Positions 11,425 to 37,215 of a stretch of DNA of 64,000 nucleotides are shown in pieces. Position numbers and translations under genes: made by a program. Source of the stretch: Tubulanus polymorphus (taxonomy: Eukaryota; Animalia; Nemertea); the NCBI RefSeq assembly GCF_964204645.1, contig NC_134028.1:13377263-13441262 (forward strand), written 5' to 3'. The notes below the pieces were generated by a model. That model was not told the DNA's origin, did not search any database, and worked only from the letters and a program-made list of their open reading frames with translations. Position 1 is the first letter of the stretch; each line of letters opens with the position of its first letter.

Positions 11425-12652
11425 AATGTCGTGAGCTACAATTTAGCAATTGATTATGGTAACAAAATATGCCTAGGTACCAATATATGCCTAACCAGAA
11501 AGAAACTTTCCATGATGGGTTTCTGTGTAATTGTTTCTGTTTCATTCACCGAACTCGCTGTCAAAAAGGCGATTCTCGATATAAATAGTAATGGGTTTTC
11601 CCCGCGGGATACCCGCTTTGGGAAAGGCACCTGAATCGATGCTACGAGTTCCAATCCCAATATTTAGACGTAATTTATTATTCTTTGAAATAAATTCTTA
11701 GAATTTCTATTTATGATAGGATGTGCAGGTTTTGATTTGGTAATGATGTTAATAAAAGTTAAACTCTTAAGGTATTGTTTTCTATCTATTATTTGTGACG
11801 GATTAGTTTCGATGCTCCTCACAACCCGCCCCACCACGTGTCACTTATTCACGGACACGCGGATTGTATCATTTGTAATAGGCCTACCACATGAAAGAGT
11901 CCATGGCCTACCGTAGAATAGTGGGGCCTACCGATCACGCTATGTGCGATGAAAGTAGTGTTTGAATAAAACAAATTTTTAATGAAATAAACATTATTTA
12001 TCATAATTAATCAATAGATCAGGTGCCACCTAAATAATTGTTTGTTTCGTGAAATTTGTACAAAACTTTGCGACTTCGTCATGTCTTGTGACCCTGAAAA
12101 TACTAGAAGAATCATCGGTAAGCTTATAAAACGGCGAGGTCAACATAGTAACAACAACTTCGGGGATTGAAAAAAAAAAACTCGAAAGAATTATTTCTTA
12201 TACTGATGAGTTATACTGATGGGGAGTAGCGACCGTCATTGAACCGGTTATTTATCCATTCACTATCAAATGTGACGAGCCCAATAAATGATTGCGCATA
12301 GATTCGGCCTCTCAGCATTTAGCACAGCAGTTCCGAGAAGTGTTAAGACCGATCAGCGCGCGCGCTATCTAAAACCGGTGCTAGTACGATCAATATCTAC
12401 AGGTATATACGTGTTCAGTATTACACAGCGAGTACCAGTATGTTGATCGAGCGTCGTCGTAGCAACGCGCTATACAGCGGCTTGAACTAGCGAGTAACGT
12501 TTATTATCTTTTAACCAAATTAGAGCACTTATAACCATCGGAATCAAATATAAACCAAGCTGCACCATCTACATCAAGTAGAGAATACCTGTGTGAAATT
12601 ACAGAATTGTCGGTCCACACAAACAGCTTAAATCGTGTCATAAAGAAACATC

Positions 12653-12684
<32 letters not shown>

Positions 12685-13805
12685 TGACGACGATGCCATA
12701 GATGGGTTCGTCTGACGACGAAACCCATCAATAAGAAAATACTAAGTTATTCTACTATTCAATGCCCCCTTATGACCTTGAAACTAACCACAATTGTAGA
12801 CCATGTCATGAGCTACAACTTTGCAATTGGTTACAAAAAAATTGCAATTGTGGTAACAAAATATACAAAGGTACGAATATAATGTCAAAATACTCAGTTA
12901 TTGTATTATTCAACGCCCCCGGTGGCCATATACAAAAACCAATGACCTTGAAACTTACCACAATCATAGCACATGTTATGAGCTACAACTTTGCAATCTA
13001 TTGTGTTAGCAAAATATGCTTAGGTATCAATATATTAGGCCTATAATGTGGAAAAACATTTTTCCACCTACGAATGAGTATTGATGACACCAATATGGCA
13101 GCTGATTGCGCGATAATGGGCTGATCAAAAATACCTGTCACAGCTATCGAAGATTCCTTTCCATAGAATACCCATCAGCAATTGGCCTGTTGCAATGAAA
13201 AATGGCAAACCAGTAGGAAGCTGCAGGACTCAGAATTTGGGCCATATTGACATTATTGGGCACAATAAAAGGTCATAGGACGGCCATCTTGTGTCCGATC
13301 GACCCAATATCTCTTATGCTGATGGGCTCTTGGGGGATACAAGTACATACGGCCGATGAAAGATCGAGATAATTGATCAAAGTGTTTTTCACGCTTATGA
13401 TTTTTAAGTTTACATGGTTTATAATATTTCTATGTTCGTCGCATTCGCCGCCTCTCCGTGGATAGGTAAAGGTCTCATGAGTGCTGTAAGTAATAATTTT
13501 GTAGCATTATTTGTTCGCTCTTATTTCTAGTTACTTACTTCCTATTTCCTCAATTTATATGTTTGTAGGCCTATCATAATTTGTTATTTTGTAGTTAACG
13601 GACGTAAAATTAATAAAAAAGAAGGTCCAGTTAAAGCCTGTGTTAGGCCTACTTGATAGTAATTTTTTGGAGGAACGTCGTCTCTGTTTACGACAAAGCG
13701 TCTTCAAAACTTCTCAAAATAACTGGAGTCTGTCTATAGACGAATGGATGGACGAAAAGTGGATGCAATAGCCCGCTGGGACTTAAGTCCCAAGTGGGCC
13801 AAAAA
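11425..13805. mobile_element. Second, partial copy of the same HINE family, interrupted by other insertions
   Basis: The same repeat units occur at 11425-11490 and 12732-13030, with the same downstream block and near-identical 3' palindrome at 13770-13805. Confidence 0.65.
11493..12731. mobile_element. Different HINE-like element nested in the second copy
   Basis: Starts AACCAG; subTIR TGATGGGTTTC / GAAACCCATCA; (GACA)n microsatellite at 12655-12684; 3' hairpin gatgggttcgtctgacgacgaaacccatc. The host repeat unit resumes directly after it. Confidence 0.6.
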
Positions 13806-15095: not shown

Positions 15096-18000
15096 AGCCA
15101 TTTAAGATGGCGGCTATGTAGATGGCGCCATAAAACGATTGACCGGACTGTCCTTGTATCTCGAAGTTGTTGTTATGTTATAGAATTTGTAAATAGTGTA
15201 AATTTATGTGACAGTTATCCAAATGTTAATAGAGATATCGTTGGCTCGCATGTAAATTCTCATACGGTAGATACATACCCTGATGTAAATAGTAACAATC
15301 ATGTACCTGATGTAACTCCTCACAATTTCATTTCTGATGTAAATAAGCGAAATATTAACACTCCTGATTTAAATAAGCAAAATGTAACTAGTACAGCAAA
15401 CGCAGCAAACATCAGTGAAATTCCTTGTATCAAATCATCATTAAAGTTTTCTACGCTGAATGTATGTGGCCTTATAGCTAAACTCGATATCCCAGAATTC
15501 TGTGAATTTATTAGCAATAATGACATCACATGTCTAACTGAAACTCACTTAGATGATTTAGACGGTAATTTAGGTTGTAGCTTGCCCGCCTCCCATATGG
15601 CGCACTTTAAAAATAGGAAAAAGTTTTCAAAAAAAGGATCAGGTGGCGTCGGTATCATATATAGGAAGTTCATGAAAAATAAAATAAAACCAATTTCGAC
15701 TGACTCTCAGTTTGTATCTTGGTATTTATTAGATAAAGATTTATTTAATCGCGACAAACATGTACTTTTAGGTGTAATTTATATTCCTCCAGAAAATAGT
15801 CGTTATTATTCAGAAATAGCTATCAGAGAAATTGAAATAGAGTTATTGCAATTGAAAGTTGAGTATGATTTCAATGTGTTAATTTCTGGTGACTTTAATG
15901 CTCACACCGCTTGTATGCCAGACTTTTTGGAACCTGATAATCAGATAATTCAAGATGATAACTTAGACCCTATTGTTGACTCATTGATTAATTTAGGCGT
16001 TCCCACTACTAGAAATAATCAGGACAAAAGAAAGAATAATACAGGCTATCAACTAGTAGATTTGTGTAAGAACCATTCACTAATTATCCTCAATGGCAGA
16101 TGTGGCAATGATCAGACAGGTAATTATACTTTTAGGAACACTAGTGTCATCGATTATTTTGTGTGTGATTTAGAACTGTTTGGTTATGTTGAGGACTTTG
16201 AAATAATGCCTTTTGACCCATTATTATCTGATGGACATAATCCTATTAATCTGTGCGTGTATACGAATTCTAGGGACACCATTGCTAGCGATAATGAAAG
16301 GGGTAATGAACACGCGAACTTTAAAACTTCAATTAGGTGGGTCAGTACTAGATCAAATCAATTTTTCCTGAATGTAGAATCAAGATTACGAGAAAATGAT
16401 TTAGATAAGTTACTGTTGGACGGGTTGCAAGATCTAGGAAATCAATCGCCAGATGACATTAATGGACTTACCGATAGATTTGTATCTTCTTTATTATCAA
16501 GTGCTGAGTGTAATTTGATGTACCATAGAAAAAGTAGGAAAAGTAATAACTGCAAAAAACCGGTCCGCAACAGATGGTTTGGCAGGGACTGTAGAGATGC
16601 ACAGAAGAAATATAATTATATGAAAAAAAGATATAGGGGTTGCCCTACCCTTTCCAATTTTGAATCTCTTAAGAACTCGTCTAAAAACTATAAAAAGGTC
16701 ATCCGAGAAAATAAGAAGAAACAAAAGGATGAATTTATTAAGGAATTGAGAGAATGCGAAATTAATAACCCAAAAAAGTATTGGTCGATGCTAAACTCTG
16801 CGAGCGGAACAAAAAATAATGAGGCTAATATAGATATTGATATTTTTCTTGAACATTTTATGAGATTAAATGATTTGAATAATGTTAACAATGAAACCGA
16901 TGACGGTGATGAGCCCCCAGACGTGGGTGACCATCCTGTCTATGAAAATTATATTTTGAACAGTGATATAACCAGTGATGAGGTAATTAAGGCTATCTCT
17001 TTACTCAAAAACAATAAGGCCCCAGGCATTGATGGAATCACGAATGAGCTGTTGGGAGTTAGTCAGTATCCGTTTTTAGTTGATATATTACAAAAATTAT
17101 TCAATTTAGTTCTTAAAACAGGATATGTTCCAGAGATGTGGTCTATAGGCGTCATCAAACCCATTTTCAAAAAGAATGGCGATCCCTCTAATCCTGATAA
17201 TTATAGAGGTATTACCTTAGTTAGCTGTCTTGGTAAATTATTTACAAGTATCCTAAATCAAAGATTGTCAACATTTCTAGATACGAATCACATTATAAGT
17301 GAAGCCCAGGCTGGCTTTAGATCGAAATATTCCACCATTGATCATATTTACACGCTTAAAACAATCGTAGAGCTGTATCTTTGTCAGGGAAGAAGACTTT
17401 TTTGCGTCTTTGTTGATTTTAAGAAAGCTTTCGACTCGATTTGTAGGGTAAAGTTATGGCGAAAATTAATTGCTAACAATGTTAATGGAAACTTTTTCAA
17501 TGTGGTCAAAAATATGTATAACTCCATAAAATCATGTGTTGAATTAAATGGTTGCACGTCACAATACTTTGCAGCTGATAGAGGCTTAAGACAAGGCGAA
17601 AATCTCTCACCTATCCTCTTTTCGTTATTCTTAAACGACATTGAAGAATTTTTCATTGATCGTGGAATACCGACTTTGTCATTTATAGAAAAACTAAATT
17701 TGAATCGTGATCAGGATATTGATACTTTACTGAATTTATTCATAATACTATACGCAGATGATACAGTTATTCTTGCTGAGGATGAGAAATCTCTTCAGCT
17801 ACACTTAGATACCTTATTTGAATATTGCGCGGCTAATGGTCTCACTGTTAACTCAGAGAAAACTAAAGTACTAGTATTTGCGCGAAGTAAATCCCGGATA
17901 AAAACGATTTCGAAATTTATGTTTGGTGATCAAGAGTCAGAGGTAGTTGAAGATTATGTTTATCTCGGAGTAAAATTCAATTGGAATGGTAACTTTGCTA

Positions 18001-19116
18001 AGGCAAAAAAGTATCTTTACGGTAAAGCTATCAGAGCTATGTTTTCGATCGTTCAAAAAGGCAGACGTTTGAAATTGCCCATAGATGTTATGTTTAAATT
18101 ATTTGATACGTGTGTTGCTCCAATAGCCATGTATGGGTGTGAGATCTGGGGATATGAAAATCTTGATTTATTAGAAAATATTCATTGCTTCTTCTGTAAA
18201 ATCTTAATGAAAGTGACGAAATATTCTCGCAACTTACAAGTTTTATCAGAGCTAGGACGTTACCCTTTGAATATAGATGTTAGACGCAGGATGATTAACT
18301 TTTGGGTGAAAACAGTATCTGGAAAGCAAACCAAATTCAATTCAATACTCTATAAAATATCTTTCAATTTATTTTTAAGGGATAAATTTAAGAGCCCTTG
18401 GTTATCATATATAAAGAAAACGTTTGATGACTGTGGTTTGTCCTGCATTTGGACGCAGCAATTCATGACTATCAGTAAATCTTTTTCAAAACGAATAAAA
18501 CAGATACTCCGTGACCAGCACCTTCAAGAAACTGTATCTGCCATAAATACTTATCCGATATACACTAACTTTAGGCAATATAAAAATGATATTAGGTTAG
18601 AGAAGTATATAATAGAACTTGGTGATGACTTAGGAACTAGTTTATTTGAATTTGGGGTCGGGTCCTATATTTTACCTGTGAACAAATTTTCAAACCTTCA
18701 TTTAGACAGAGCCGATAGAATATGCCCCACTTGTAATACTTTAGGTGACGAATCCCATTTTCTGTTTGACTGTACCTTACTTAACGAACAACGCAAAAAC
18801 TTTTTGAATTTGAATACCTTTAATACCCTTGATATTCTGAAAAACCCAACGGTCAACTTAGCTAAATTCATTAAGACCGGCTTAGATGTATATAGATCCC
18901 TCCAATAGTATATATAGTATTGTAAATAGTTGATGTATATAATAGTGTATATAGTATTGTAAATAGTTGATGTATATATATATTTCGTTACGTTTTCATT
19001 CTCTAAATTTTAATCACTTTAGTGTTGTTTTGTAAATATTTGTATATACATGTGTAATAGTTTTCCTCCATATACCATGGAAATGGTTGGAGTGTAAATA
19101 AATCGTAATCGTAATC
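15096..19116 (+). mobile_element. Non-LTR retrotransposon (LINE, RTE-X-like)
   Basis: Single APE-RT frame, short 3' UTR, AATAAA running into an (AATCGT)n tail ending at 19116. The 5' boundary is uncertain and no TSD was found. Confidence 0.85.
15441..18908 (+). CDS. LINE ORF2: APE endonuclease, reverse transcriptase and C-terminal CCHC finger
   Basis: The frame is open from 15096. Motifs LNVCGL, CLTETH, GDFNAH, IDYF, SDGH, KAPGIDG, QAGFR, DFKKAFDS, QGENLSP, YADD, YLG, CPTC..DESHFLFDC. Confidence 0.93.
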   Translation, partial: LKFSTLNVCGLIAKLDIPEFCEFISNNDITCLTETHLDDLDGNLGCSLPASHMAHFKNRKKFSKKGSGGVGIIYRKFMKNKIKPISTDSQFVSWYLLDKDLFNRDKHVLLGVIYIPPENSRYYSEIAIREIEIELLQLKVEYDFNVLISGDFNAHTACMPDFLEPDNQIIQDDNLDPIVDSLINLGVPTTRNNQDKRKNNTGYQLVDLCKNHSLIILNGRCGNDQTGNYTFRNTSVIDYFVCDLELFGYVEDFEIMPFDPLLSDGHNPINLCVYTNSRDTIASDNERGNEHANFKTSIRWVSTRSNQFFLNVESRLRENDLDKLLLDGLQDLGNQSPDDINGLTDRFVSSLLSSAECNLMYHRKSRKSNNCKKPVRNRWFGRDCRDAQKKYNYMKKRYRGCPTLSNFESLKNSSKNYKKVIRENKKKQKDEFIKELRECEINNPKKYWSMLNSASGTKNNEANIDIDIFLEHFMRLNDLNNVNNETDDGDEPPDVGDHPVYENYILNSDITSDEVIKAISLLKNNKAPGIDGITNELLGVSQYPFLVDILQKLFNLVLKTGYVPEMWSIGVIKPIFKKNGDPSNPDNYRGITLVSCLGKLFTSILNQRLSTFLDTNHIISEAQAGFRSKYSTIDHIYTLKTIVELYLCQGRRLFCVFVDFKKAFDSICRVKLWRKLIANNVNGNFFNVVKNMYNSIKSCVELNGCTSQYFAADRGLRQGENLSPILFSLFLNDIEEFFIDRGIPTLSFIEKLNLNRDQDIDTLLNLFIILYADDTVILAEDEKSLQLHLDTLFEYCAANGLTVNSEKTKVLVFARSKSRIKTISKFMFGDQESEVVEDYVYLGVKFNWNGNFAKAKKYLYGKAIRAMFSIVQKGRRLKLPIDVMFKLFDTCVAPIAMYGCEIWGYENLDLLENIHCFFCKILMKVTKYSRNLQVLSELGRYPLNIDVRRRMINFWVKTVSGKQTKFNSILYKISFNLFLRDKFKSPWLSYIKKTFDDCGLSCIWTQQFMTISKSFSKRIKQILRDQHLQETVSAINTYPIYTNFRQYKNDIRLEKYIIELGDDLGTSLFEFGVGSYILPVNKFSNLHLDRADRICPTCNTLGDESHFLFDCTLLNEQRKNFLNLNTFNTLDILKNPTVNLAKFIKTGLDVYRSLQ

Positions 19117-21211: not shown

Positions 21212-23261
21212 TCACCACCAGTTACAAATGATAATAAACTGTCTACTAAAACTAAGTAAATATATATATAGGGTTATATACAAGGGTATCTCTGAGGCCC
21301 TATTTTGGTTGGCTAGCGAATCATCGTTGTTGACTGTACATGAGTTTACGAATCGACTAGGGCGCCTGATCCCTACTCTGGGCCTGAGTCTTCTGTGCCC
21401 CTCAGTGTCTGTAATGTTCAAAGGGCCAGGCTTGGAGCGGTTTTGAGTAGGAGGCTCGCGATGGTTTTGGGTAGGGTTTGTTACAAGAGGTTCTTGAATA
21501 ACCGCCGTTGTCTCGGGGTGTGACCGTGTCCAGACACAGTCTTCATCTTCCTCCCCCTCGTCGTCATTGAGGGTTGGTTGCTCCTCGGGATCGGTCGTTT
21601 TAACCGGTTCCTGTCTAGGTTTTTTATGACCTATGGTCACGGTCTCACTAGACAGGAAGCACGGTTTCATATCATTGAAGTGCACAACCCGCTTTCTCTT
21701 CACCGCCCTCGGATCGGCGCCTGGTTCCAGGACAACCCTGTAATTCACCTCCGATAGTCTCTCGGTCATGACGTAAGGCCCTTTCCATTTCCGGTGGAAC
21801 TTAGATGCCTCGTCCTTTTTCAAGAAATGGCTCATCAGCCACACGCGATCCCCGACCTTGTAACCCCCGCGTTTTGCGAAACGGTCATAGTCCATTTTCT
21901 GACGCCTTTGTGCCATCACTAGTCGATCACGAACAATGTTGTTTGACTTAGTGAGGCGGTCAGAGAGGTCCATGCCATACTTAGTCCGTGGTTGGTGGTC
22001 CTCGGGCAAGCCTACGCTGATGTCGATCGGTAGTGACATTTCCTCGGCGTACATCAAGTAGAACGGCGTTTCAAGAGTGGAGTGCTGGACGCTTGAACGA
22101 AATGCCATCAAACACGCAGGTAGTTCCTCGTCCCAGTTTGTTCCACACTCATTGACGGCTGTAGTCAGCATGGCCTTCAGGGACTTATTGAAATTTTCCA
22201 CCTGCCCATTGCCCATAGGATGGTAGGCGGTGGTTCTGGTCTTTTCAATAGCCAAGATCCTACACATCTTCATGAAAACCTTCGACTCGAAGTTCGCGCC
22301 TTTGTCCGAGTGGATGGATTCAGGGCAGCCATAACGGGTGACCCACTCGTTCACAAGGGCACGTGCCACCACGGAGGCCTTTTCCGTGCGGATTGGCCAT
22401 GCTTCGGGCCACTTAGTGAATGCATCTTGAGCCACTAGAATGTAGACGTTGCCGCGGCGGGTTCTCGGTAATGGGCCCACGATGTCTATATGTACACGCT
22501 GGAAGCGTCGCCCTACCGGTGTAGACATCAATGGGGCTTTTGGTAGTTTGGACGGGGACTTGCACTCTTGGCAAGTTTTGCAGCCCCGAACAAAATCCCT
22601 GACCCTAGCTGAGAGGCCTAATACCCAGAATCTTTCCCTAATTTTGCACTCTGTCTTTTTGGTACCAAGATGTTTCCCCGCAAATCCCTGATGTATGACT
22701 TCTATGGTTCCATCAGTCAGTGAAATGGGTAGTACCACTCGGTGTCTCGTTGAGGTAGCCCCCGGAAGTGGTTTAAGTGCAAGAATGCCATCTAAAAGCT
22801 CTAGACGCTCAACCAGACTATAGAGGCTCCTCGCTGTTCTACCACACCGTTGTAGCCGTTTCTTGTCCTTGACCCCATCTCTGGCCAAGAACTCCCTAAT
22901 TTCTGATATTTCGGGGTCATTTACTTGCGCCTCGATTATTTTGTTCCTGGACAAGCCAGTGGAGTGCGCTGTCAAATCGCCCTGATGTTTTGCAGTCACC
23001 TGGTATATAGATAGGGATGCGAGACAGGGCGTCTGCGTTCAAATGTTTGCTTCCAGCTCGATGTTCGATCACGAAATCATATTCCGACAGGCGTTCAAGC
23101 CACCGAGCCACTTGGCCCTCAGGGTTTTTGAAGGTTTGTAGCCACTTGAGTGCTGCGTGGTCTGTGCGAACTTTGAATTTCCTGCCTAGTAAATGGTGGC
23201 GGAAGTGATCAATCATGTCAACCAACGCCAACATTTCGCGCCTGGTGGCACAATAGTTCTC
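21212..23261 (-). pseudogene. pol: Gypsy pol 3' part: RNase H C-terminus and integrase (frameshift near 23000)
   Basis: ENYCATRREMLALV..TDHAAL..RWLERL..NADALSR; HHCC finger; HIDIVG, HSDKG, GQVENFN; GPY motif. Confidence 0.95.
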
Positions 23262-23700
23262 AGTAATAGGGATAATGGGCTTTCAAGCCAAAGGTCGAAC
23301 GGTCGAGCTCGTAAAAAATGAAAAAACATAAAAATAATAACAATTTCTACTTGAATTACTCGCAAAACTCATAAAAATGAAAAATAAATTCTCACACGCT
23401 CGAATTTATTTTTCATTTTATGAGTTTCACTCCTAATTCAAGTAGAAATTGTAATTATTTTTATGTTTTTTCATTTTTACTCACCCGCCCGTTCGACCTT
23501 TAGCTTGAAAGCCCATTATCCCTATTACTCTTAACATATTCATATATATATGAATAACATTTAAATCATTGAACTTCTAAAATCAATTTTAATAAAAAAT
23601 ATAGTATTAAAATGGAAGCAAATAAATACTACTGCCCAACATGTAATATCGATATAGATAAATCCCAAAAAGCAAGACACAATAAAACTAGAACACATTT
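23262..23700 (+). repeat. Left TIR, including a 268-bp hairpin (23262-23529) and the first ~30 codons of polB
   Basis: Reverse complement of 40626-41021; arms agtaatagggataatgggctttcaagc / gcttgaaagcccattatccctattact. Confidence 0.95.
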
Positions 23701-26700
23701 AGAGAATAAATTGAAACTAGAGTATAAAGATGATATATTAGAAACTAAATTAGATGAATTAAAGAATGAAAAAGAAACATACAAATGTGATACATGTAAT
23801 CAATCATTCAGTGATAAAAGATATTATAAAGAACATTTAAAATCTATAAGTCATATTAGAAATAAGAATAATGATATTTTAGGTGAAGATTATTTTGATA
23901 ATGATAACGATAAGAAACAGAAGACAATTAAAAGAATAAAAAATAAATTAAACAATAAAAGACCATACATGGAAGATGTAAGAAATTATATTAATTCATT
24001 AGATAATAAAAAAGATATAGAGATAACCGAAGCATTTAAAAGTGATATTGGTCCAGCAGCTATCGAGTTTAAATTTCATAAAGGTAAAACAATAGAAGAA
24101 AATAAAAAACATTTAGAAAATATGAAAGAAATGATAAAAATAATTACAAACGTAGAATATCCAAAAATTAGTATATCAGTTAAAGTAAAGTTTATAAAAT
24201 CTGAAGATAAACCAATATATAATATAAATTCTCATTCACAACATATTATATCTAAACAACATATAAATGATAAATTAAATAAATGTTATAATGAAATAAA
24301 AACTAAAATAGAAGAGAAATATTTTGAAGGATCTGGTTTAATATTTGATGAGATAATATTTATAACTTTACATGTTTATAACACAAAATATAATAAGTTA
24401 ACTAAATCAAAACCAATTGATGAAAATAATTTATCATATTATAAAGAACCAGATATTGAAGCATCGAGTTATATTAAACTACCATTTAAAACTAATGCTG
24501 TAATAAATGTACAAAATGAAGATGATAAATGTTTTCTATGGACAATTATAAGTTGCTTACACCCAGTTGAAGATTATAAACAACATAGTTTTAGATTAAC
24601 TCATTATAAACAATTTGAAAATAATTATAAGATAGATAAGTATCCTGTTAGAATTAAAAATATTCCAAAAATAGAAAGAGATAATAATCTAAAAATAAAT
24701 GTATTTGATTTAATCAAATTACCAAATACAAAAGGAAATAATATTAAACATTATACATTAGAACCTTTATACCTATCAAAAGATTATGATTCAAATGATG
24801 TTATAGATATACTATATTATGAGAATCATTATATGTGGAATTAACAAATAGATTTATTTTTTAGAACAGAAAATGATCACCATAAAATATATCTTTGTAG
24901 AAAATGTTTACATAGATTCAGTAATGAAAGTACATTATTAAATCATAAACAACTATGTGATAATCATGATTATTGTAAATTAGTTTTACCAAATGAAAAA
25001 GATAAAATATTAGAATTCAAAAAATATGATTACAAAAATAAAGTACCATTTGTAATATATGGAGATTTTGAATCATTAAATAAAGAACTAACTGATCAAG
25101 ATAGAAAAGATATATATTATAAAAGAAAGAAATTAAATTCTAATGAAAATGATATAATTGATTATTCAGATCCTATAATAACAAATACTATTAAAAAGAT
25201 CTATCAAAGTGCTGCAGCTTTCGGGTTATATATTAAATCTAATTATCCAGAACTAATTGAAAGTGAATATTATAATTACAGAAATGAAAATGTTATCAAT
25301 TATTTTTGTGACTTATTAATTGAATATGAAATAAGATTTAGTAAATTATTGAATACAAATAAAGAAATAATTATGACAGAAGAAGATAAAGAAGAATTTG
25401 AGTTTGCAGATAAATGTTATTATTGTGAAAAGATATTTAATTATAAAGATAAAAAAGTAAGAGACCATGATCATTTGAATGGAAAGTTTAGAGGCGCTGC
25501 ACATGAGAATTGTAACTTACAAGCTAAGAAAATTAACTTTGTACCAGTTATATTTCATAATCTATCAGGATATGATGCGCATTTATTCATCAAACAGTTA
25601 TGTCATAAAATAGAAGAAATCAATAATGAAATAGAAATATTAAATTCAAATAGATCAAAAGATAAAATACCAACTTATAAATTTAGAATGTTAGCTAAAA
25701 CATCCGAGAATTATATATCTTTCCAATTTGGATGCCTAAGATTTATAGATTCATATAGATTTTTAAGTAGTTCATTAGATAACTTATCGAAATCATTAGT
25801 TGATGATGAATTAAAAATATTAAAACAACACTATCCAAATAATGATGATTTTAAATTAATGAGATATAAAGGAGCAATTCCTTATTCATTTTATAAAACA
25901 CATAATGATTTTAACATAACTGAATTATTAAAAGAACAATTTTATGATGAATTAAAAAATGAATATGTTAAAGATGAAGTCTATGATAGAACATTGAATA
26001 TTTGGAATCATTTCAAAATAGAAAATCATGGGCAATTAGTAGATTTATATTTAAAATCAGATGTATTATTATTAACTGATATATTCGAAAGGTTTAGAGA
26101 TGTAAACCTAAAATATTTCAATATTGATCCTTGTCATTGTTATTCATCACCAGGATTAACATGGGATTGTGGATTAAAATTTACAGATATAAAAATGGAT
26201 TTGTTAACAAATATAGATCAATTACTATTATTTGAAAAATCTATAAGAGGAGGTGTTTCAGGTGTATTGGGTGATAGATATTTCAATGTAAATGATAATC
26301 CTGGATATAAATTATTATACATAGATGCAAATAATCTTTATGGTTGGCAATGATGGAACCACAACCTTATGGGATGTTTGAAATAACTGAAGTTTTACAA
26401 ATTGATAAATTTGATTGGAAGAAAAGAATTCTAGATATTGCAGATGATTCAGATACTGGGTACTTCTTTGTTGTAGACTTGGAATATCCTGAACGTATTA
26501 AATTCAAATCTAGAAATCTAGCATATTGTCCCGAACATAAAACTGTTAAACATGAAGAATTATCAAATTATCAAAAAAGAATTAAACCCGATAATCATAT
26601 TCATACTGAAAAGTTAATGGTAACTCAAGAAGATAAATATAATTACGTTGTGCATTATAGAATGTTGAAGTTTTATTTGAGACAAGGAATGATATTAAAA

Positions 26701-27648
26701 AAAGTACATAGATATATTTCATTCAGTCAATCTAAATGGTTAGAAAAATATATAGATTTTAATACTACACAGAGAACTAAAGCTAAAACTGATTTTGAAA
26801 AAGATTTCTTCAAGTTAATGAATAATGCATTCTATGGTAAGACTTGTGAAAATATTAGAAATAGAAATGATATTGAGTTAGTTAGTAATGGTAAAAGGAT
26901 AAGGCATTTACAATCATATCCTAAGTTTATAGGTAACAGAATATTTGATGAAAATTTAGCTGCAGTTAAGATGAGAAGAACTTCAATGAAATTTAATAAA
27001 CCGATTTATGTTGGAGCTGCAGTTTTAGAATTATCAAAATTACTAATGTATGAATTCTATTATAATATATTACAACCTCATTTTGGGGAAAAACATATTG
27101 AAATATTATATTTTGATACAGATTCTTACATATTAAAGATAAAAACTGATAACATAACTGATGATTTAAAAATATTAAAACATCATTTTGATTTCAGTAA
27201 CTATCCTAAAAATCATGAATTGTTTACCAATGATAATAAAAAAGTTCCTGGGAAGTTTAAGGATGAATTAGGTGGTGAAGAAATGATAGAGTTCATAGGT
27301 ATTAGATCTAAAATGTATTCATATAAAACTAAAGAACATGAAGCTAAAAAGTTAAAAGGAATTACCAAAAGCGTTGTTGAAAAGAATATTCATTTTAAAG
27401 ATAACATCAATTGTATATTCAAAGAAGAAGTTAGAAAACATAAGATGAAATGTTTAAGATCTGAAGATCATGAAATGTATATTGAAGAGATAGAGAAGAT
27501 AAGTCTAAACCCATTTGATGATAAAAGATATATTTTAGATGATGGAATCCACACAGTCGCCTATGGTTGCAATTTAGATGAATATATAAAATTCAAAAGA
27601 GAAGAAACAAAAGAAAATGAGATTATGAAAAGGATTCTAGCGTGTTAA
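23612..27648 (+). pseudogene. polB: Protein-primed family B DNA polymerase with N-terminal C2H2 fingers, an OTU-like Cys motif and an endonuclease VII insert; in-frame stop at 24842 and frameshift at ~26347
   Basis: DDKCFLW; YGDFES; CYYC..VRDHDHLNGKFRGAAHENCN; FHNLSGYD; LYIDANNLYGW; KLMNNAFYGK; YFDTDS. Lesions were located by comparison with copy 2. Confidence 0.95.
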
Positions 27649-27676
27649 TCAATTTCAATAAAAATTTGTATAATAA

Positions 27677-28018
27677 ATGGAGAGTAAACAAGTACACAGT
27701 GAATTCTTAGATAGAATTAAAGATACTTCAAGCGTCAAATCTGTAGATTATAAATTCAAAAAGTTAACAGAATTAACAATCCATAAGAAATATCTAATTA
27801 CAAATATTGATACAGTTGCTAACAAATATGGAGATAAATTAGTTATACACTTAGAATATGAAGGATTAAAAGGAAATAAATATAAATTCAGAACTTATTT
27901 ACCAGATAGATTTCATAGATTATCAAGTGAAGATCTAGAAGAATTATGTTCTGGAGATTTCTATTTCGTATACAAAGGTAAGAATGAAAAAGGGCACCAT
28001 GAAATAGATTTCGAATGA
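27677..28018 (+). CDS. Conserved Polinton protein (113 aa), possibly an OB-fold ssDNA-binding protein
   Basis: Intact in both copies and adjacent to polB; KKLTEL...KYGDKL...YLPDRF beta-rich pattern. The function is inferred. Confidence 0.6.
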   Translation: MESKQVHSEFLDRIKDTSSVKSVDYKFKKLTELTIHKKYLITNIDTVANKYGDKLVIHLEYEGLKGNKYKFRTYLPDRFHRLSSEDLEELCSGDFYFVYKGKNEKGHHEIDFE

Positions 28019-28035
28019 GAAAATATGTAAAATAA

Positions 28036-28789
28036 ATGGCGGAATTAAAAGAATACAGAATATTTGTTGATTCAAGAAAACTTACAAATTATAAATCACA
28101 TAATTTACTAGTTCAATTAGATAGAGAATTTAAGAATTGTGTAGATTTAAAATTAGTAAATATAAGTTTATGTAATTCTTTTTACAATGTATCGGATAAA
28201 ACTTTTGAACATAGAGGGTTTATGATTTATATGAGAAATAAAGATAAATGGTTTCATATATTTTTAAAACCAGGATTATATAATTTAGAATCATTAGCGC
28301 AGGAAATTAATAGAAGAGCTCGGTTGAAAATCGGGGGCACTTCTGTATTTGAAATTAAATTTAATAAAATTGATAGTACTAATAAAATAAGAATAAAGAT
28401 ATCTAATGAACAACATAAATTTATGGTAAACAAACCACTGGCTAAAATGTTAGGAATTAAACCGCTTACAGTTACTGGAAACGCAGAAGGCAGCTCAAAT
28501 ATAATACCTTTTACACACTTTTATATTTATTGCAATTTAATCGAGCCTACAAAAACTTGAAGCAACTAAAGAAACAATTTGTAATTCTAGTATACTAAAT
28601 ATTTTACCGCTAAAAAATGTTAAACAATTTGGAACTCAAATAAATTATAATTTAACAGAATGTGATTTTAAACCTTGCATTCCTAAATTTAATAATTTTA
28701 AATTAGAAATAAGAAATCATAATGGATACTTAATTGATTTGAATAACTTTCCTGTAATTTATGAATTAGTTATAAGATGTAAAGAGTAA
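28036..28789 (+). pseudogene. Minor capsid protein (penton, single jelly-roll), frameshift at ~28557
   Basis: SFYNV, PGLYN, LAKMLG, FYIYCNLI, LEIRNHNG..IDLNNFPV..EL.IR pattern typical of Polinton penton. Confidence 0.75.
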
Positions 28790-28805
28790 TTTTTCACTTA
28801 TATAA

Positions 28806-29153
28806 ATGAATATAACTGTTGGACCGAGTATATGTTTTGGATTTGATTTTAAACGTGAGAAAGAAATGAAATTTAACATTAATGATGTAATTACACATAT
28901 CAAAAATATTGCATTTTCTAATGAAACAACATTTGAGTATGAAACAACAATAGATAAAGAAACTTTTAATGTAGAAAAGATTACTGAGTCTCTAAGATTT
29001 TATGAATTAGATGAAGATTTTATCATCGATGATATTAAAAAAATAATAATTGAAATATATGATAATCATAAAACTAGTAATGAAATAAATGTTGAATTAA
29101 TCATAAATAAGTTAACTAAATATTTTGAAGATAGTAATTTTTTTGATAAATAA
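28806..29153 (+). CDS. Hypothetical protein (115 aa)
   Basis: TAAATG start; diverged homologue at 56768-57109. Confidence 0.6.
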   Translation: MNITVGPSICFGFDFKREKEMKFNINDVITHIKNIAFSNETTFEYETTIDKETFNVEKITESLRFYELDEDFIIDDIKKIIIEIYDNHKTSNEINVELIINKLTKYFEDSNFFDK

Positions 29154-29375
29154 ATGAGTGATAATAAGTGGATAATAACTGGATTATATAATAGCGCATT
29201 ACTATCAGTTGGAACGGTTGGTTATTCAATGGTATTAAAAAAAGTATTCAAAATGGGAAGTGTTAATGTTGATAGATTTGATATAAATGATATTTTAAAG
29301 TTAACATTAGCAGTTACTTTATCTAATTTAACAATTGATTATTTGGAAAAACAAAAATATATTCCTCCCATATAA
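29154..29375 (+). CDS. Small hydrophobic protein (73 aa)
   Basis: One amino-acid difference from 57110-57331; two hydrophobic segments. Confidence 0.75.
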   Translation: MSDNKWIITGLYNSALLSVGTVGYSMVLKKVFKMGSVNVDRFDINDILKLTLAVTLSNLTIDYLEKQKYIPPI

Positions 29376-29400
29376 ATGCATAATTTTTTTTGCTAAATAA

Positions 29401-29821
29401 ATGGCTTCTGCAATTATAACTATTATAGGATCGGCAATTGTTAACACTTTAGCATTTAATGGTGGTGGTTATTTATTTAAACATATTGATAAAAATAGTT
29501 CATTAGGAGAACAAAGAAGACATAACTTAGCGTTAGAGAAATACAATAAAGCTGCAGAAGAATATAGAGAAAAACGACAAAACTATATGGATTATATTAA
29601 CAAAGAATTATATGATCAGAAGATTTCACATAGATTTTCAATCAGTTGATGATGCAATGAGTTTATATAACGCAGTAACAAATAAAGAAAAATTACATCT
29701 ATACAAACCTAAATTATCAGATTATTATACCCCAAGTAAAGAACAACAGAAATATGAAATAATATGGATTTTAGGTGGAACAGTTATTGTTATATTTGTT
29801 GCTTATAAGTTTACTAATTAG
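29401..29821 (+). pseudogene. Membrane protein (~140 aa, N- and C-terminal hydrophobic helices), frameshift at ~29632
   Basis: Intact homologue at 57356-57778. Confidence 0.75.
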
Positions 29822-29840
29822 TAATTTTTATTCTAAATAA

Positions 29841-30275
29841 ATGGAAGATATAGTTGATAGTATTGATATTATTCCTCATGATATAAATAAAACTAAATTA
29901 AAAACATATTTAGAAAAACAAATATTAGAATTTGAAAGTGACTTAAAGATAAAAAAGAAAAAATATTTAAAAAGTAGAATTATATATTATTTGATTATAA
30001 GTGGTTCGGTTACAATTAGTTCTGTAATAACATTTCTAGCAATATTCAGTCCATTAACACCTTTAGCTATATCAATTGGTGTGTTAGGATTAAGTTCAAG
30101 TGTTTTAACTGGTATAAGTTCAAAATTAAATATAAAAAGTAATAAAGAAAAAATTAAAACTAATATAAAAGAAATTAATAAATTAAAGAACACACTAGAT
30201 TATATAATAAGTTTAAATGGTCATATAACAGTTGAAGAACAAGATAAATTATTAAAAGAATTAATAAATTATTAA
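29841..30275 (+). CDS. Two-TM coiled-coil protein (144 aa)
   Basis: Hydrophobic hairpin IIYYLIISG...VLTGIS; homologue at 57799. Confidence 0.7.
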   Translation: MEDIVDSIDIIPHDINKTKLKTYLEKQILEFESDLKIKKKKYLKSRIIYYLIISGSVTISSVITFLAIFSPLTPLAISIGVLGLSSSVLTGISSKLNIKSNKEKIKTNIKEINKLKNTLDYIISLNGHITVEEQDKLLKELINY

Positions 30276-30291
30276 TTTTTTAGTTATATAA

Positions 30292-31593
30292 ATGGGGTTT
30301 CCAAAAGCTTTCCAATATAATAAATCAATTAAATATAATATTCCGGCAATAGATTTTAAGAAAAATATTACATATAAAAATATAGTTTTAAATTCATTAA
30401 CTAATTTAGAAATTTATGTTAATGAATCACAGTTTTTTATTTCTAAAATGGAAAATATATTTAATACATATGAAGTTACTTTTACTCGAGATGAATATCA
30501 TATATATAAAGTAAAATCTAATATGAAATATTGGCAGAATCAATGAAATTTTGCTGTTTATTGTGCAACAACAGGATGTGGAATTAGTTGGAATGATCAT
30601 TTAAATAACTTAGATAAAAATTTGAAGTATTCTGATTTAAAATTAATTCACACAATATTTAGATTTCACTCATATTTTCAAATCAGAATAATATTAAATG
30701 AATTAGAATGTCCTTTACCCGGGTCTAAATATTTTAAAGAATTAGATAATAATATTAATCTATCTAAGTTTTATAAAATATGTAATGAATTTAATATAAA
30801 TATTAATTCCGATTTCAGAGCGCATGGTAAATTGCAAGGTGTTGGTGAAGAGTATGAAATAAAAAGAATTGATTATATGCATAGAATTGGAGCTTATCAT
30901 AATTATAAAATTGATAATAATAATGGTTGGGTTAATTTCATTTTAGAAAATGGTGAAGGTTTTACAAAATCAGGTATACAAAGAATAAATCAATCTATTA
31001 GAATTTATTTGATATGTATTTTAGGCGCTCAAGTTGAAACAAGATCACCGATAATTGGAAATTTGAATACATCATTCGATACACAAAAACAATTTAAAGT
31101 TTTATTTGAAGATTCAATTCATAATGATAAAAATAGATCGATTCCAGAAAACATTATAAGATATCAAAATTATTTAGATAAATCTCATGTAAGACTTAAT
31201 TATTGTATAGGCCCTAATCTATTAATTATTTCTAATGATTTAGTATTAAAGATGGGAAATATAATTGGTTATAATAATCTAATTAAAACTGCAACAATAA
31301 ATAATTCATTTGGATTGAATGATATAAATAAAAAGATTATTACTGCTCCAAAATTAATGGAAGGTGAAAAAAATAAAAAACACATTCAATCAACTGAAAC
31401 TAAAACTAAGAATATTAAATTAAATAATGATTCTAAAATAAAAGATTATAATACATCAGAAGATATAAAAACTGATATTATTCAACATGATATAATTAAA
31501 CTAAATGATGATAATAAATCCCATGAAAATACTAAATTAGCTATAACTTGTATAGGAATTGTAATCGGAGGAATATTATATTTTAAATTTTAA
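30292..31593 (+). pseudogene. Conserved Polinton protein (~430 aa) with C-terminal TM anchor; premature TGA at 30544
   Basis: WQNQ*NFAVYCATTGCGISW...RFHSYFQIRIIL; copy 2 reads through this position (WQNQLNF). Confidence 0.75.
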
Positions 31594-31609
31594 TTTTTGT
31601 ATTATGTAA

Positions 31610-33073
31610 ATGGCAGAAGGTGGAGAAGATATTGGAATGGATGACATGGGAAATGATAATGAAGGATATATTGATGATGATTATAATGATGCAGAAACTA
31701 ATATTGATAATGATGATGAATCAGCATATAATTCTAATTTAGCAGATAGTGGTTCTAAAGCCCCATCAACAGATGAATTTGATAGAAGAACTAGATCGAG
31801 AATAAATCCTGAAAATGAAAATCCAGATTTAGTAAAACAAAATTTAGAATATAATGAATTTATGTATGATTTTCAACATGTATTTAAAGATTCTGGATAT
31901 AATATAAATACCAGAGGCGCTAGACTTTTAGTACAAGAATTAAAGTTTTTAGATGGTGAATATTATTATCGTTTGAAAGATGATTATTATATTGATATCT
32001 TTTATAAAAAACAAAAAAAAATATTAGCAGAATCAACTTTGCTTAAGTCTGACTCATTACTATCTAGAATTAAGAGAATAAGAAATAGTAATGAAATAGA
32101 AGATGTAACACAAGAAGAAATTATTAAAAATGAAAGAGTATTTAAACAAAGAATTAATGAATTATTTGAAACAATCGATAATAATTTAGAAACAGAAACA
32201 ACTTCTGAACAGAATATAACTTCCAAAACTAGTAAACTTAAATCAAACACTGAAGTTCAAACTGAAAAACTTTTACCGAATGGATTACTTGATGCAACAG
32301 ATCAAGAAATAGAAGCTTTAAGTATGTTTTCTAAAAAAACAATTAGAGAAATAATAAGTATACGAAATGATGCCGATAAAATTGCGCGCGAAAAACATAT
32401 TAGATATAATAAAATTAAAATTTTAGAAAATAAATTATTTGACACCAGAAAAGAATTAGAACAATTAAAATTAGATAGAGAATTTAAAGTTATTGAAGAA
32501 ATTGAATTTAAAAAAAGAAATGCATATTTAGAAAAAGAAATTGATGATTTAGAATATAACATAGAATTTCAGAAAGAAAAAATGAAATTATTATTAAAAT
32601 CATACGATTATTGTATCAATAGATTAAAAGTTGTTGTTAAAGAGTTAATACTAAAACCAAATTCTGACATATCACTAAAAGATAGAATAAAATTATTATT
32701 TAAGTTTGAAGGAATAACAGTTCTTTCAATTCTAACAGCTGTAACTATGTTATTTACAACAATTGGTTTAGCAATATCAAATGCTTTAAAATCTACTCCT
32801 ACTCCCACTCCCAATAAACCAGATAAACCTCCAGGTAATAATTCTATACAAGATAAAGTTAAGGATGGTTTAAAAAAATTAGCAAAATATTTATGGGAAC
32901 TATCAAAGAAATCTGCTGCAGCTTTACCAGGAGTTATTGCTTCAATTGTTGGTTTTATATTGAAATCTGCAGGAAACATTATTAACTTTGCTGCTGAACA
33001 TATTATTTTATTTTTAATTACAGTTGTAAGTGCTATTATTTTTGGTTTAGTAAACATGATAAAAAATAAATAA
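31610..33073 (+). CDS. Acidic/coiled-coil protein with C-terminal hydrophobic helices (candidate membrane-penetration protein)
   Basis: 487-aa intact ORF; C-terminal EGITVLSILTAVTMLFTTIG and LPGVIASIVGFILK...LFLITVVS conserved in copy 2. Confidence 0.75.
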   Translation: MAEGGEDIGMDDMGNDNEGYIDDDYNDAETNIDNDDESAYNSNLADSGSKAPSTDEFDRRTRSRINPENENPDLVKQNLEYNEFMYDFQHVFKDSGYNINTRGARLLVQELKFLDGEYYYRLKDDYYIDIFYKKQKKILAESTLLKSDSLLSRIKRIRNSNEIEDVTQEEIIKNERVFKQRINELFETIDNNLETETTSEQNITSKTSKLKSNTEVQTEKLLPNGLLDATDQEIEALSMFSKKTIREIISIRNDADKIAREKHIRYNKIKILENKLFDTRKELEQLKLDREFKVIEEIEFKKRNAYLEKEIDDLEYNIEFQKEKMKLLLKSYDYCINRLKVVVKELILKPNSDISLKDRIKLLFKFEGITVLSILTAVTMLFTTIGLAISNALKSTPTPTPNKPDKPPGNNSIQDKVKDGLKKLAKYLWELSKKSAAALPGVIASIVGFILKSAGNIINFAAEHIILFLITVVSAIIFGLVNMIKNK

Positions 33074-33094
33074 TTAATTTTTTTTGTTAAATAA

Positions 33095-34346
33095 ATGAGT
33101 GGGAGTTATATAAGTCCTTCGAAGAATCATAGAATATCTAATGCTATTAAAGCAGAAAGATCACATCATATAATTACTCATAACCCTTCAAATATTAATC
33201 CCGATGAAACTTTATATGTTAGAATTCCTAGATTAACACAAAATACTTTTTATGTTCCAAACAGTATTTATTTATCAGCCGATATAACAGTAGCCGGTAA
33301 TAATAATAATTATGTTGTTGATAATGTTGGAAGATATTTGATTAAAAAGTTAACAATAAAGATTGGTCCAGAAACAGTTTTCTCATTAGATGATTATAAT
33401 TTATTTATGCATTATAAAGATTTATGGTTAACTAAAGAAAATAGAAATAATATGATATTTCAGGGTATTCAATCAGAAAACCAAAATAAATTAAGATCAG
33501 AAGCTAATAGCGCAATATTAACTAATGATGTAGATAAATTGATAAAAAGTATATATGGAAGCAAATATAAAATTCCATTAGACTTTGAATTGATAAATAA
33601 TAATGCACCTTTATATAAATACGCAATTCAAGAAGATATTATATTTGAGATAACATTTGCTCCTGTAAATGAAATTGTATTATCTAGCCTTAATAAAGAT
33701 ATGAGTTATAAATTATCGAATATATGTTTAGAATATGATACAGTAACTGATGAAAATATTTCAAGTATAATTCAAACTCAATACAATCAAGGGTTTTCAT
33801 TATTATATGATTATATTGATAAATTTAAAACTGTAACTATTAATGCAAATGATGAAATAATTAATGAGAATATTAACTTCCCTAGAAGATCTATTAAAGG
33901 TATATTAATATTTTTTACCATTGGAACGTATACTAATGGCGCAATAAATGTTGATAATTATTATAATCCTGAAATAACAAAAGTAGAAATAACTATCGAA
34001 GGTATAGCAAATAAAATATTTTGTCAAGGAATGAGAATGATTGATCAATGGGTAGAAATTAAAAAACATTTTATGAATGAAAAAATAAAATCATTTGAAA
34101 ATTGTAACATTAATCAAATTGATTGATTATTATACCGGTAATAAATATGCATTATGGTTAGATTTTAGAACAACAGAGGATAATTCATTACATGGTTCTG
34201 GAAAAAAACTACAGAACACTAGAGATGGAATACAATTATTCATGACAAAGAAAAAGGGAATCAAAAATTTTAAAATGCATATTTATATTATATCTGACGC
34301 GCAATTAAATATTGTAAATTCACAATTAGATAGTGTTATGTATTAA
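33095..34346 (+). pseudogene. Major capsid protein (double jelly-roll/hexon-like), frameshift at ~34121 (GATT duplication)
   Basis: ~415 aa; HNPSNINPDETLYVRIPRL, LEYD, NINFPRRSIKGIL, YALWLDFR..DN.LHGSG; very highly conserved in copy 2. Confidence 0.8.
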
Positions 34347-34378
34347 AATTTTAACTTTAATAAAAATATATATAATAA

Positions 34379-35365
34379 ATGGAAGGAGGTAAAGTATATG
34401 AAAGAATCAAAGCTGATAAAGAAATCAATGATGATTTGTATTATGTAATACCTTATAAAAGAATAAATGAATATATTGGAACATTTTTATTAAATGAATT
34501 AAATCAATACAAAGAATATTTAATTGAACGTAATAATAAAAGTGGTGTTGTTAATAATAGTGTAATTGATAATAATGTAATACCTACTACTACATCTGTA
34601 ATACCTACTACATCTGTAATACCTACTACATCTATAATACCTACTACATCTGTAATACCTACTACATCAAATAATGTAATACCTACTACATCTGTAATAC
34701 CCTCTACATCAAATAATGTAATACCTTCTACATATAATAATGCAATAATATTAGATGTTAGTGAAAATAGAAATTATTGTGGTTATTGTAATGGTGAATT
34801 TTCAAACGCTCCATCAAATTGGAATAAACATATGAATACAAAGGTACATATTACTAATGTTATAGAACGTGTTGGTTTAAGAGAATTTATAGAACACCCA
34901 TTTAGATATGTTACAAAATTTGTTTCAAATAAAAAAGTAAATGGTAAAGAATTATATGAAGATTTTTTATTAGCAACACCTAATAGAGATGAATTAGATT
35001 TAACCGATGCTAATGAAATATTAGGATCAAACACTGTAAATGAAATATTAGGAGCAAACACTAATAAAGATGATAATGAAAATAGCGCCATACACCCACA
35101 TGGTGATATAGTTACAGATAAGCATATTGATAATAAAGATTCTATGAAACATAAAGAAGAAACTATTGATGATATAATAGAAAGGATGAATAAGTTTAAA
35201 AATGAAACAACTATTGATGATGCGGTAAAAAGGGTGAAGAATAAGTATAAAAATAATGAAGAATTTGAAGAAGATTCGGTAGAGAATTTGAATAAATTGT
35301 TAGGGTATGATAGTGATTATAGTGAAAGTGATTCAGAAATTGATTATCTAACACTCAAAAAGTAA
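34379..35365 (+). CDS. Protein with (T/S)VIPTT repeats, a C2H2 zinc finger and an acidic tail
   Basis: 18-bp tandem repeat at 34575-34735; CGYC...WNKHMNTKVH. Confidence 0.75.
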   Translation: MEGGKVYERIKADKEINDDLYYVIPYKRINEYIGTFLLNELNQYKEYLIERNNKSGVVNNSVIDNNVIPTTTSVIPTTSVIPTTSIIPTTSVIPTTSNNVIPTTSVIPSTSNNVIPSTYNNAIILDVSENRNYCGYCNGEFSNAPSNWNKHMNTKVHITNVIERVGLREFIEHPFRYVTKFVSNKKVNGKELYEDFLLATPNRDELDLTDANEILGSNTVNEILGANTNKDDNENSAIHPHGDIVTDKHIDNKDSMKHKEETIDDIIERMNKFKNETTIDDAVKRVKNKYKNNEEFEEDSVENLNKLLGYDSDYSESDSEIDYLTLKK

Positions 35366-35422
35366 TAAAGGTTGAAAATTGTATAAAATAATAGTAAATA
35401 AAAAAAGGGTTTTAATTATTTA

Positions 35423-35512
35423 AGGTATCTAATAGGGTATTAGGTATTAGGGTATCAGGTATTAGGGTATCTAATGGGGTATTAGGTATTAGGGTATCTA
35501 ATGTATAGGTAT
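35423..35512. repeat. GGGTAT/TAGGTAT microrepeat at the convergence of the two gene blocks
   Basis: Five GGG runs; also present at 63582-63660. Confidence 0.85.
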
Positions 35513-35520
35513 ACAAATAG

Positions 35521-36132
35521 TTATTTTATAAATTTATATTCATATGGAAATTGTAATCTCATAAGTAATTTGGAACCTTTATTATTCTTTAATTTATTCA
35601 TATATTCATCATGTAATTCAGTAGGTATAATTTGATTTTCTTCCAATGATTGTTGCATAGATTTTCTATCTTTGTTGTAGAATAAAACTAGAAATCTTAT
35701 ATTCTCCCTAAAATCTTTCACAATTGAATTATATTTCTGATTTAAAACCCAAGTTGTTATCCCAAAATGTCTACCAGAGAAAGCTAAATAACATAACTCA
35801 CTTTCTCTAATTTTAGAATCATGTAAATTTGCGCAATCATCAATAATAAATAATGTATTTGATCCTTTATAAATATCTAATGCAATTTTTATACAATTAT
35901 CTAAATTATCTTTTACTGTTTTAGGGTCTAATATAATAAACTTTTTTATCTTAACTATATCTCTATTATACGTTTCATTCATTTCATAAGTTGGGCAGAA
36001 TAATATTATATTATCAAAATGATTTTTATAAATAGTTTCTAATAAATATAATATGAAGTGTGTTTTACCACAATTTGTAACTCCAGTTATTAACATATTA
36101 TGTGGTTCAAATATAAACAAATCTTTATTCAT
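35521..36132 (-). CDS. A32/FtsK-like genome packaging ATPase
   Basis: Walker A GVTNCGKT, Walker B LFIIDD, and GRHFGIT...Q motif. Confidence 0.92.
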   Translation of the reverse strand: MNKDLFIFEPHNMLITGVTNCGKTHFILYLLETIYKNHFDNIILFCPTYEMNETYNRDIVKIKKFIILDPKTVKDNLDNCIKIALDIYKGSNTLFIIDDCANLHDSKIRESELCYLAFSGRHFGITTWVLNQKYNSIVKDFRENIRFLVLFYNKDRKSMQQSLEENQIIPTELHDEYMNKLKNNKGSKLLMRLQFPYEYKFIK

Positions 36133-37209: not shown

Positions 37210-37215
37210 CTTATT

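Follow-up and report, generated by a model that had tools for sequence, protein, structure and literature searches.

We found a putative strand-specific, orientation-fixed terminal DNA fold in a Polinton lineage that bears a terminal protein, and this combination appears to be new. The window, the whole 64,000-nt stretch of Tubulanus polymorphus DNA analyzed here, is low-GC and of animal type. Besides a LINE ORF and a Gypsy element, it contains three pieces of Polintons. Compared with other Polintons, each TIR here opens with a strand-asymmetric palindrome of 120 to 270 bp. An earlier note on this DNA had pointed out the palindromes; the strand asymmetry of their mismatches goes beyond that observation and is new here. 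In the reading that we prefer, and to which we give a probability of about 0.5, the 3' end of the displaced strand folds back, and the fold would supply a duplex origin close by for protein priming as well as a template for end repair.

The Polinton pieces and their main genes are as follows.

8630-8963: Polinton end fragment, single-ended
8630-8841, minus strand: inner TIR and start of a small ORF in the fragment; homologous to 27647-27829 and 55589-55784
23262-41025: Polinton copy 1
23262-23700: left TIR of copy 1, made up of the hairpin and an inner part; overlaps the PolB start
23612-27648, plus strand: protein-primed PolB of copy 1, split into three ORFs
25397-25528, plus strand: endonuclease VII/HNH-type insert in the PolB of copy 1; counterpart at 53329-53460 in copy 2
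33095-34126, plus strand: probable major capsid protein, from a Capsid_N match that is weak (E 0.005) and does not reach the cut-off
35521-36132, minus strand: A32-like packaging ATPase (Pfam)
36367-37209, minus strand: RVE integrase (Pfam)
40626-41025: right TIR of copy 1, 400 bp, 99% complementary to 23301-23700; the outer ~39 bp are lost
51291 to window end: Polinton copy 2, which runs past the window edge
51563-55029, plus strand: protein-primed PolB of copy 2, in two ORFs

By gene content the element is an ordinary Polinton. The Pfam scan identified pPolB (as DNA_pol_B_2), the endonuclease VII insert, the A32 ATPase, and the RVE integrase. Long TIRs, a pPolB with terminal-protein and vOTU domains, an RVE integrase, and a packaging ATPase are all present, and in these it resembles Polinton/Maverick elements of the adintovirus type with an endonuclease-containing pPolB. 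Among capsid and maturation-protease families in Pfam, the weak Capsid_N match was the only one. AG...CT tips are typical of Polintons, and the tips here are similar.

The terminal hairpins and their internal motifs are listed below.

8842-8963, plus strand: hairpin of the Polinton end fragment, 122 bp; 50 of 55 columns Watson-Crick
23262-23529, minus strand: hairpin at the left end of copy 1, 268 bp; 116 of 130 columns Watson-Crick
23309-23310, minus strand: tandem GA/GA mismatch 1, opposite 23481-23482; putative sheared geometry
23360-23361, minus strand: tandem GA/GA mismatch 2, opposite 23431-23432
23391-23402, minus strand: apex of the copy 1 hairpin, closed by tandem GA/GA; read variants at 23394 and 23398
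40797-41025, plus strand: truncated right-end hairpin of copy 1, in the same orientation as the left end
51291-51482, minus strand: hairpin at the left end of copy 2, 192 bp; 73 of 91 columns Watson-Crick

The extents of 268, 192, and 122 bp given in the earlier note agree with our alignments and with DNA folding, in which the hairpins scored z = -15 to -33 relative to 60 dinucleotide shuffles. That note also took the right end of copy 1 for a full 268-bp hairpin. This was wrong, as 40797-41025 lacks the outer ~39 bp. The terminal hairpin of L004, a relative found in another assembly and 81% identical in PolB, measures 257 bp and has a largely different stem sequence. In the window copies the outer 23 to 27 bp of the stem are perfectly paired (27 bp in the left hairpin of copy 1, 23 bp in copy 2, and 26 bp in the fragment). 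The stem closes exactly on the terminal 3' base, beside the first inner-TIR base and flush with the 3' end. In every variant it stops precisely at the end of the DNA.

The apex is common to copy 1 and the fragment, as had been claimed; the fragment apex is built as in copy 1, except that the C-G and G·T pairs beside it have exchanged places. The copy 2 apex differs, being irregular and poorly paired, and this hairpin has no tandem GA. Copy 1 contains three tandem GA/GA loops and the fragment one, and the L004 apex is a C(GAA)G triloop. By hairpin type, GA/GA occurs in two of four, the GAA triloop in one, and neither in one (copy 2); the GA pairs are probably sheared. All GA and GAA motifs of copy 1, the fragment, and L004 lie on the 3'-terminal strand, by which we mean the strand whose 3' end is the element terminus. 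Tandem GA stacking and GAA mini-hairpins are described as stable motifs in DNA (PMC8163305, PMC13037366). A direct repeat at 23292-23306 consists of two GGTCGA-like units 8 bp apart. It is kept in all five tips, including those of L004 and of a second relative, L005. Present with or without the hairpin, it is a candidate origin-binding site.

The mismatches within the stems are strongly biased between strands. They were counted in strand-neutral alignments with a free apex, scoring Watson-Crick pairs alone. Read on the 3'-terminal strand, which in copy 1 is the minus strand with its 3' end at 23262, the four hairpins including L004 contain 25 G·T and 1 A·C mismatches (copy 1, 5:0; copy 2, 9:1; fragment, 3:0; L004, 8:0). 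When columns common to several hairpins were merged, the ratio was 20:1 (P = 1e-5 against 0.5). Polarized substitutions in the neighboring DNA, taken from the adjacent PolB gene and so from coding DNA only, are near-symmetric between the strands (53:42), and the 20:1 ratio also departs from this local bias (P = 8e-5). Strand-specific deamination was rejected as the source of the G·T excess on the basis of the 53:42 ratio in neighboring coding DNA. Two control inverted repeats of the host in the window gave 2:3 and 7:3, and the mismatches of a 2.2-kb foldback element (49079-51289) are without strand bias. Global alignments with forced apices gave a G·T:A·C ratio of 21:2, and of 11:6 for L004. 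Over all hairpins G·A exceeded C·T by only 10:5. The DNA folding energy of the 3'-terminal strand was better by 5 to 8 kcal/mol in the window copies, and the two strands of L004 were equal (-69.5 and -69.4 kcal/mol).

Substitutions between variants are mirrored in both arms, as first proposed. Over the first 27 nt, we compared pairwise differences found in both arms with those found in one arm. Between the three window variants the counts were 3:2, 6:1, and 6:3; when each of these was compared with L004, they were 10:3, 10:4, and 10:2. Wobble positions are common to variants whose neighboring pairs have changed. Many of the mirrored changes are transversions. A transversion has no wobble intermediate to go through, so one arm has probably been copied onto the other to some degree.

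Reads came from a sequencing run in a second study that carries the same species label, and 14,467 of them were placed. Two mirrored pairs segregate in them, 23272/23519 at 53 and 58% and 23330/23462 at 52 and 61%, as unphased frequencies. The predicted arm-to-arm covariation is thus present across the window variants, L004, and segregating read pairs. Among the 40 read variants listed, of 254, 16 lie in the arms; they are unphased, and the arms can cross-map. Ten of the 16 produce G·T, 3 restore a pair, 2 produce A·C when taken alone and have a compensating partner, and 1 is unpaired. Fifteen of the 16 leave the 3'-terminal strand with a Watson-Crick or G·T pair. Length variants were also found. 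A joint from 23363 to 23428 (124 reads) removes 64 nt symmetrically and turns internal GA/GA loop 2 into the apex, with symmetry kept. A joint from 23419 to 23519 (46 reads), also in host reads, deletes most of the inner arm.

Before 23262, 1,830 reads end loosely, with unrelated flanks (agreement 0.34). So many unrelated flanks indicate that the hairpin is the tip of many independent insertions. Read depth was ~860 inside the element, 1,730 in the inner TIR, and 2,380 per arm, and it fits a TIR component rather than an amplified MITE. The heterogeneous flanks and the arm-to-inner-TIR depth ratio of 1.38 uphold the earlier view that the hairpin belongs to the terminus and is not a free MITE. 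If the hairpin were inverted, its wobbles would move to the other strand, so orientation can be read from the asymmetric bases. All five ends, as integrated copies, have the same orientation. At 23495 the base needed for a G·T pair on the 3' strand was found in 93% of reads, as placed on the copy 1 reference, where 94 reads fit two places and arm cross-mapping is possible. The flip/flop isoforms raised in the earlier note were not seen among integrated copies. Sixty-two reads switch strand beside the apex (23411-23419). They may represent a variant with a second inverted apex, that is, a branched end.

The trait looks lineage-restricted. L005 (65% PolB identity) has an intact PolB and a homologous tip with no inner arm. 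L017 (37% PolB identity) has a Polinton-like tip and no long hairpin. In a self-comparison of 87 loci, L004 and L002 alone had a long, well-paired hairpin upstream of PolB. Among 26 loci with a 5'-complete PolB, chosen from 51 that hold the N terminus, a recognizable tip was found only in L004, L005, and probably L017. The hairpin of L002 (4567-4750, 184 bp) lies between divergent genes, upstream of a distant PolB, and its tip-like repeats face the opposite way from those of a terminal hairpin. An inverted match in L029 was rejected as a tip, being A+T-rich intergenic DNA. The hairpin is an accessory feature and is not essential to Polintons generally. Viral contigs contained no match to a degenerate terminus pattern and no relatives of the integrase or the capsid-like protein. 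Related PolB genes were present in records labeled as bacterial genomes (P0005; L084 to L087), probably through eukaryotic or viral contamination of bins.

The absence of an inner arm from a close relative with an intact PolB is what would be expected if the hairpin were a by-product. A fold-back replication error would have duplicated the tip, and occasional copying between arms would keep the two alike, with no selected role. The range of lengths (122 to 268 bp), the inner-arm deletions in reads, and the ragged apex of copy 2 also fit. Such an origin does not predict a 25:1 strand bias beside near-symmetric neighboring substitutions. Nor does it predict wobbles shared by variants with changed adjacent pairs, GA and GAA motifs confined to one strand, or the persistence of a hairpin in L004 despite its largely different stem. 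We regard it as unlikely.

The priming domain of the polymerase is retained. Polinton pPolB is described as having a terminal-protein domain followed by a vOTU protease; the linking residue of the former, a Ser or Tyr next to Gly or Pro, lies between helix 2 and strand 4 (bioRxiv 10.1101/2024.03.18.585575). The N-terminal PolB piece of copy 1 contains zinc fingers, a terminal-protein region with the linking Ser-Gly, and the vOTU Cys and His. The linking Ser is near-invariant in 22 relatives. In a predicted model of the intact L004 PolB (pLDDT 81), it sits in the helix 2/strand 4 loop. The model matched adintovirus PolBs (E 1e-14) and, weakly, Y-polymerase little-finger PDB entries (E about 0.01); a little-finger likeness of polinton terminal proteins has been described (bioRxiv 10.1101/2024.03.18.585575). 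The hairpin does not appear to replace protein priming, as the earlier note had suggested, since the terminal-protein fold with its Ser-Gly and the vOTU Cys and His are kept. The endonuclease VII motif looks complete in both copies and was found in 60 of 87 relatives, including the hairpin-less L005. PF02945 was present in 35 among the 120 homologues listed. Such inserts in PolB are described as homing-type endonucleases (bioRxiv 10.1101/2024.03.18.585575, 10.1101/2023.08.22.554363). The proposal that endonuclease VII resolves the hairpin is unsupported, as the insert occurs in these loci irrespective of a hairpin. In Pfam, no HUH Rep/NS1 nickase was matched among 32 of the 36 ORFs of at least 100 aa, and no Tap or Tpg protein among the scanned window ORFs.

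These genes bear on the possibility that the folded 3'-OH itself primes inward, or that the ends are closed, with a nuclease such as endonuclease VII resolving the product and one orientation being kept. The exact closure of the stem on the 3' base, beside the first inner-TIR base, would suit self-priming, as would the complete-looking endonuclease motif in both copies and the 62 strand-switching reads. A parvovirus end with a single orientation exists, the left end of MVM. A similar model has been proposed for protist elements (bioRxiv 10.64898/2026.07.28.741278). We consider self-priming quite unlikely here. There is no flip/flop, the sequences flanking the tip are heterogeneous and are not inverted element sequence, the priming domain is kept, and no HUH/Rep protein was matched among the 32 ORFs scanned. 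The nuclease is distributed irrespective of the hairpin and is described as a homing-type insertion.

A third explanation places selection on RNA. An outward transcript from the TIR would fold into a G·U-rich stem, as a source of small RNA or a dsRNA decoy. The G·T bias is equally compatible with an RNA hairpin, since G·U bias is typical of RNA stems, and tandem GA is found in RNA too. The strand gap of the fragment is wider when folded as RNA (-80.9 against -67.7 kcal/mol). Against it, the stem stops at the DNA terminus exactly in every variant, and the adjacent PolB gene is on the opposite strand and reads inward. L004 has a C(GAA)G triloop, which is a motif of DNA type, and a related RNA hairpin is described as far less stable (PMC13037366). 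Rfam gave seven sub-threshold matches to generic miRNA precursors and none at the gathering level. An RNA function is likewise quite unlikely on this evidence. That a MITE-like palindrome was inserted at Polinton ends is barely credible: the arm depth (mean, 1.38 times that of the inner TIR) would suit it and can be explained by divergent inner TIRs of other subfamilies, the four window copies and L004 all have Polinton sequence next to them internally, the plain tip of L005 is a homologue of the outer arm, and no free hairpin copies were found within the window.

The local fold-back that we prefer would proceed in four steps. The polymerase would start at the tip from the terminal protein and displace the other strand. 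The freed 3' end would then snap back within 120 to 270 nt to form a local panhandle, avoiding the alternative pairing with the far TIR 17 kb away. A new terminal protein would prime on the folded tip, and strand displacement would open the stem; the outcome would be a full duplex with arm order unchanged and no flip/flop, and the integrase would insert this extended form. Finally, trimming and refilling of the folded 3' end may carry inner-arm changes outward, which would explain the mirrored transversions. A local partner for the 3' end would explain why the register is exact and the outer stem pairs perfectly, why the mismatches favor one strand, why a single orientation is seen, why the terminal protein is retained, and why the hairpin is dispensable in L005. 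The fold-back part of the earlier telomere proposal is likely, in single-stranded form. Its closed ends of the poxvirus or ASFV kind and its resolution by hairpin transfer are not supported, given one orientation in the five ends and 93% of one base at 23495.

The strand bias, the GA and GAA motifs, the mirrored changes, the single orientation, and the kept priming domain suggest this local fold-back. Counting against it are L005 and L017, which lack the hairpin, and the read joints that delete the inner arm. The missing GA and ragged apex of copy 2, the equal strand energies of L004, and the G·A:C·T ratio of 10:5 also count against it. A full panhandle over the same stretch has a folding energy of -261 kcal/mol, against -70 and -63 kcal/mol for the two hairpins. 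The panhandle is far more stable, so the hairpin would need a kinetic advantage.

The closest functional likeness is to Streptomyces, whose 3' overhangs, folded with sheared G·A pairs, are described as required templates for protein priming (PMC4513846) and whose truncated tips are repaired on a fold-back (PMC5449611). A 3'-strand-specific fold with G·A, protein priming on the folded end, and fold-back repair would be common to both. Streptomyces telomeres have several short packed palindromes, an internal origin, and a Tap primase, whereas the element here has one long stem and is expected to initiate at the end. The likeness is one of analogy and not of homology. The hairpin probably belongs to none of the poxvirus, parvovirus, or Streptomyces telomere families and probably works most like the last. 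With somewhat less than even confidence, we suggest that an animal Polinton lineage may have evolved structured single-strand telomeres convergent with those of Streptomyces. G·T, sheared G·A, and GAA-loop pairing would hold the fold, and protein-primed restart and tip repair would proceed without a genome-spanning panhandle. If so, this would be a eukaryotic viral folded-DNA telomere that acts with the terminal protein, not instead of it.

The panhandle of adenovirus and PRD1 is similar in that it gives the displaced strand back a duplex end on which a protein can prime. It joins opposite genome ends, whereas the partner here would lie within 270 nt of the tip. A 2025 paper states that direct evidence for the displaced-strand panhandle is lacking and also invokes the panhandle for homology restoration (PMC11886824). 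Poxvirus and parvovirus hairpins are likewise A+T-rich, imperfect, and terminal, with mismatches retained. Poxvirus telomeres exist as two forms, flip and flop, made by junction resolution (PMC8956199). They have closed ends and two isoforms, and parvoviruses depend on Rep nicking; here there is one orientation, an integrated extended form, and no Rep match.

Hairpin priming is not a new idea. It was proposed for Halocafeteria virophages (subtypes 1, 2, 5, and 6) and PLV subtype 4, which have palindromes at TIR extremities (bioRxiv 10.64898/2026.07.28.741278). Those palindromes also lie at the TIR extremity beside the flank. They are short (52 nt in subtype 5) and occur preferentially with non-pPolB replication genes, whereas those here are long and occur with pPolB and a terminal protein. 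The available text of that preprint contains neither a strand asymmetry nor an orientation test. Casposon TIRs can contain palindromes (PMC4046053), and the ITRs of bidnaviruses are described as not forming hairpins (PMC4061559). Hairpins at Polinton DNA ends are not mentioned in the available portions of PMC11296320, PMC12220804, and PMC6061790 or of bioRxiv 10.1101/2023.08.22.554363 and 10.1101/2022.05.25.493380. In the literature outside Repbase, the founding papers of 2006-2007, and preprint supplements, we found no description of strand-asymmetric terminal hairpins in pPolB-bearing animal Polintons.

The model of Polinton replication has so far been based on sequence. A strand-specific fold indicates which strand is single-stranded at the tip and argues against pox-like ends. 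The hairpins are short, defined substrates for assaying priming and end repair. Counting G·T against A·C also offers an inexpensive way to test the terminal palindromes reported in protist virophages and PLVs.

Copy 1 is inserted within the RNase H region of a Gypsy retrotransposon, whose flanks lie at 21212-23261 and 41012-44440. The Gypsy frame across copy 1 presumably misses ~35 to 40 codons, going by the usual layout of the family. The missing codons were lost together with the right tip of copy 1. The TSD of copy 1, for which a Polinton would have about 6 bp, is unreadable because the right tip is deleted and the adjoining Gypsy frame resumes only after a gap. A small ORF lies 3' of PolB in copies 1 (27677-28018) and 2 (55620-55973). 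The same ORF lies directly inside the tip in the fragment (8630-8814) and in L004 (571-936). Its placement differs between elements, so gene order beside the Polinton end is mobile. The fragment is the terminus of another subfamily with the small ORF as its first gene, as in L004.

The 2.2-kb foldback element has 943-bp arms (98%) and stops one base short of the copy 2 tip. An imperfect inverted repeat of 183 bp (7637-7819) is likely the end of another transposon, and the stretch just before it resembles, by eye, what we take to be a YqaJ-type nuclease gene. A dispersed tandem array with 154- and 239-bp units occupies 9768-13045. The window also encodes an intact LINE-type reverse transcriptase ORF of 1,103 aa at 15597-18908.
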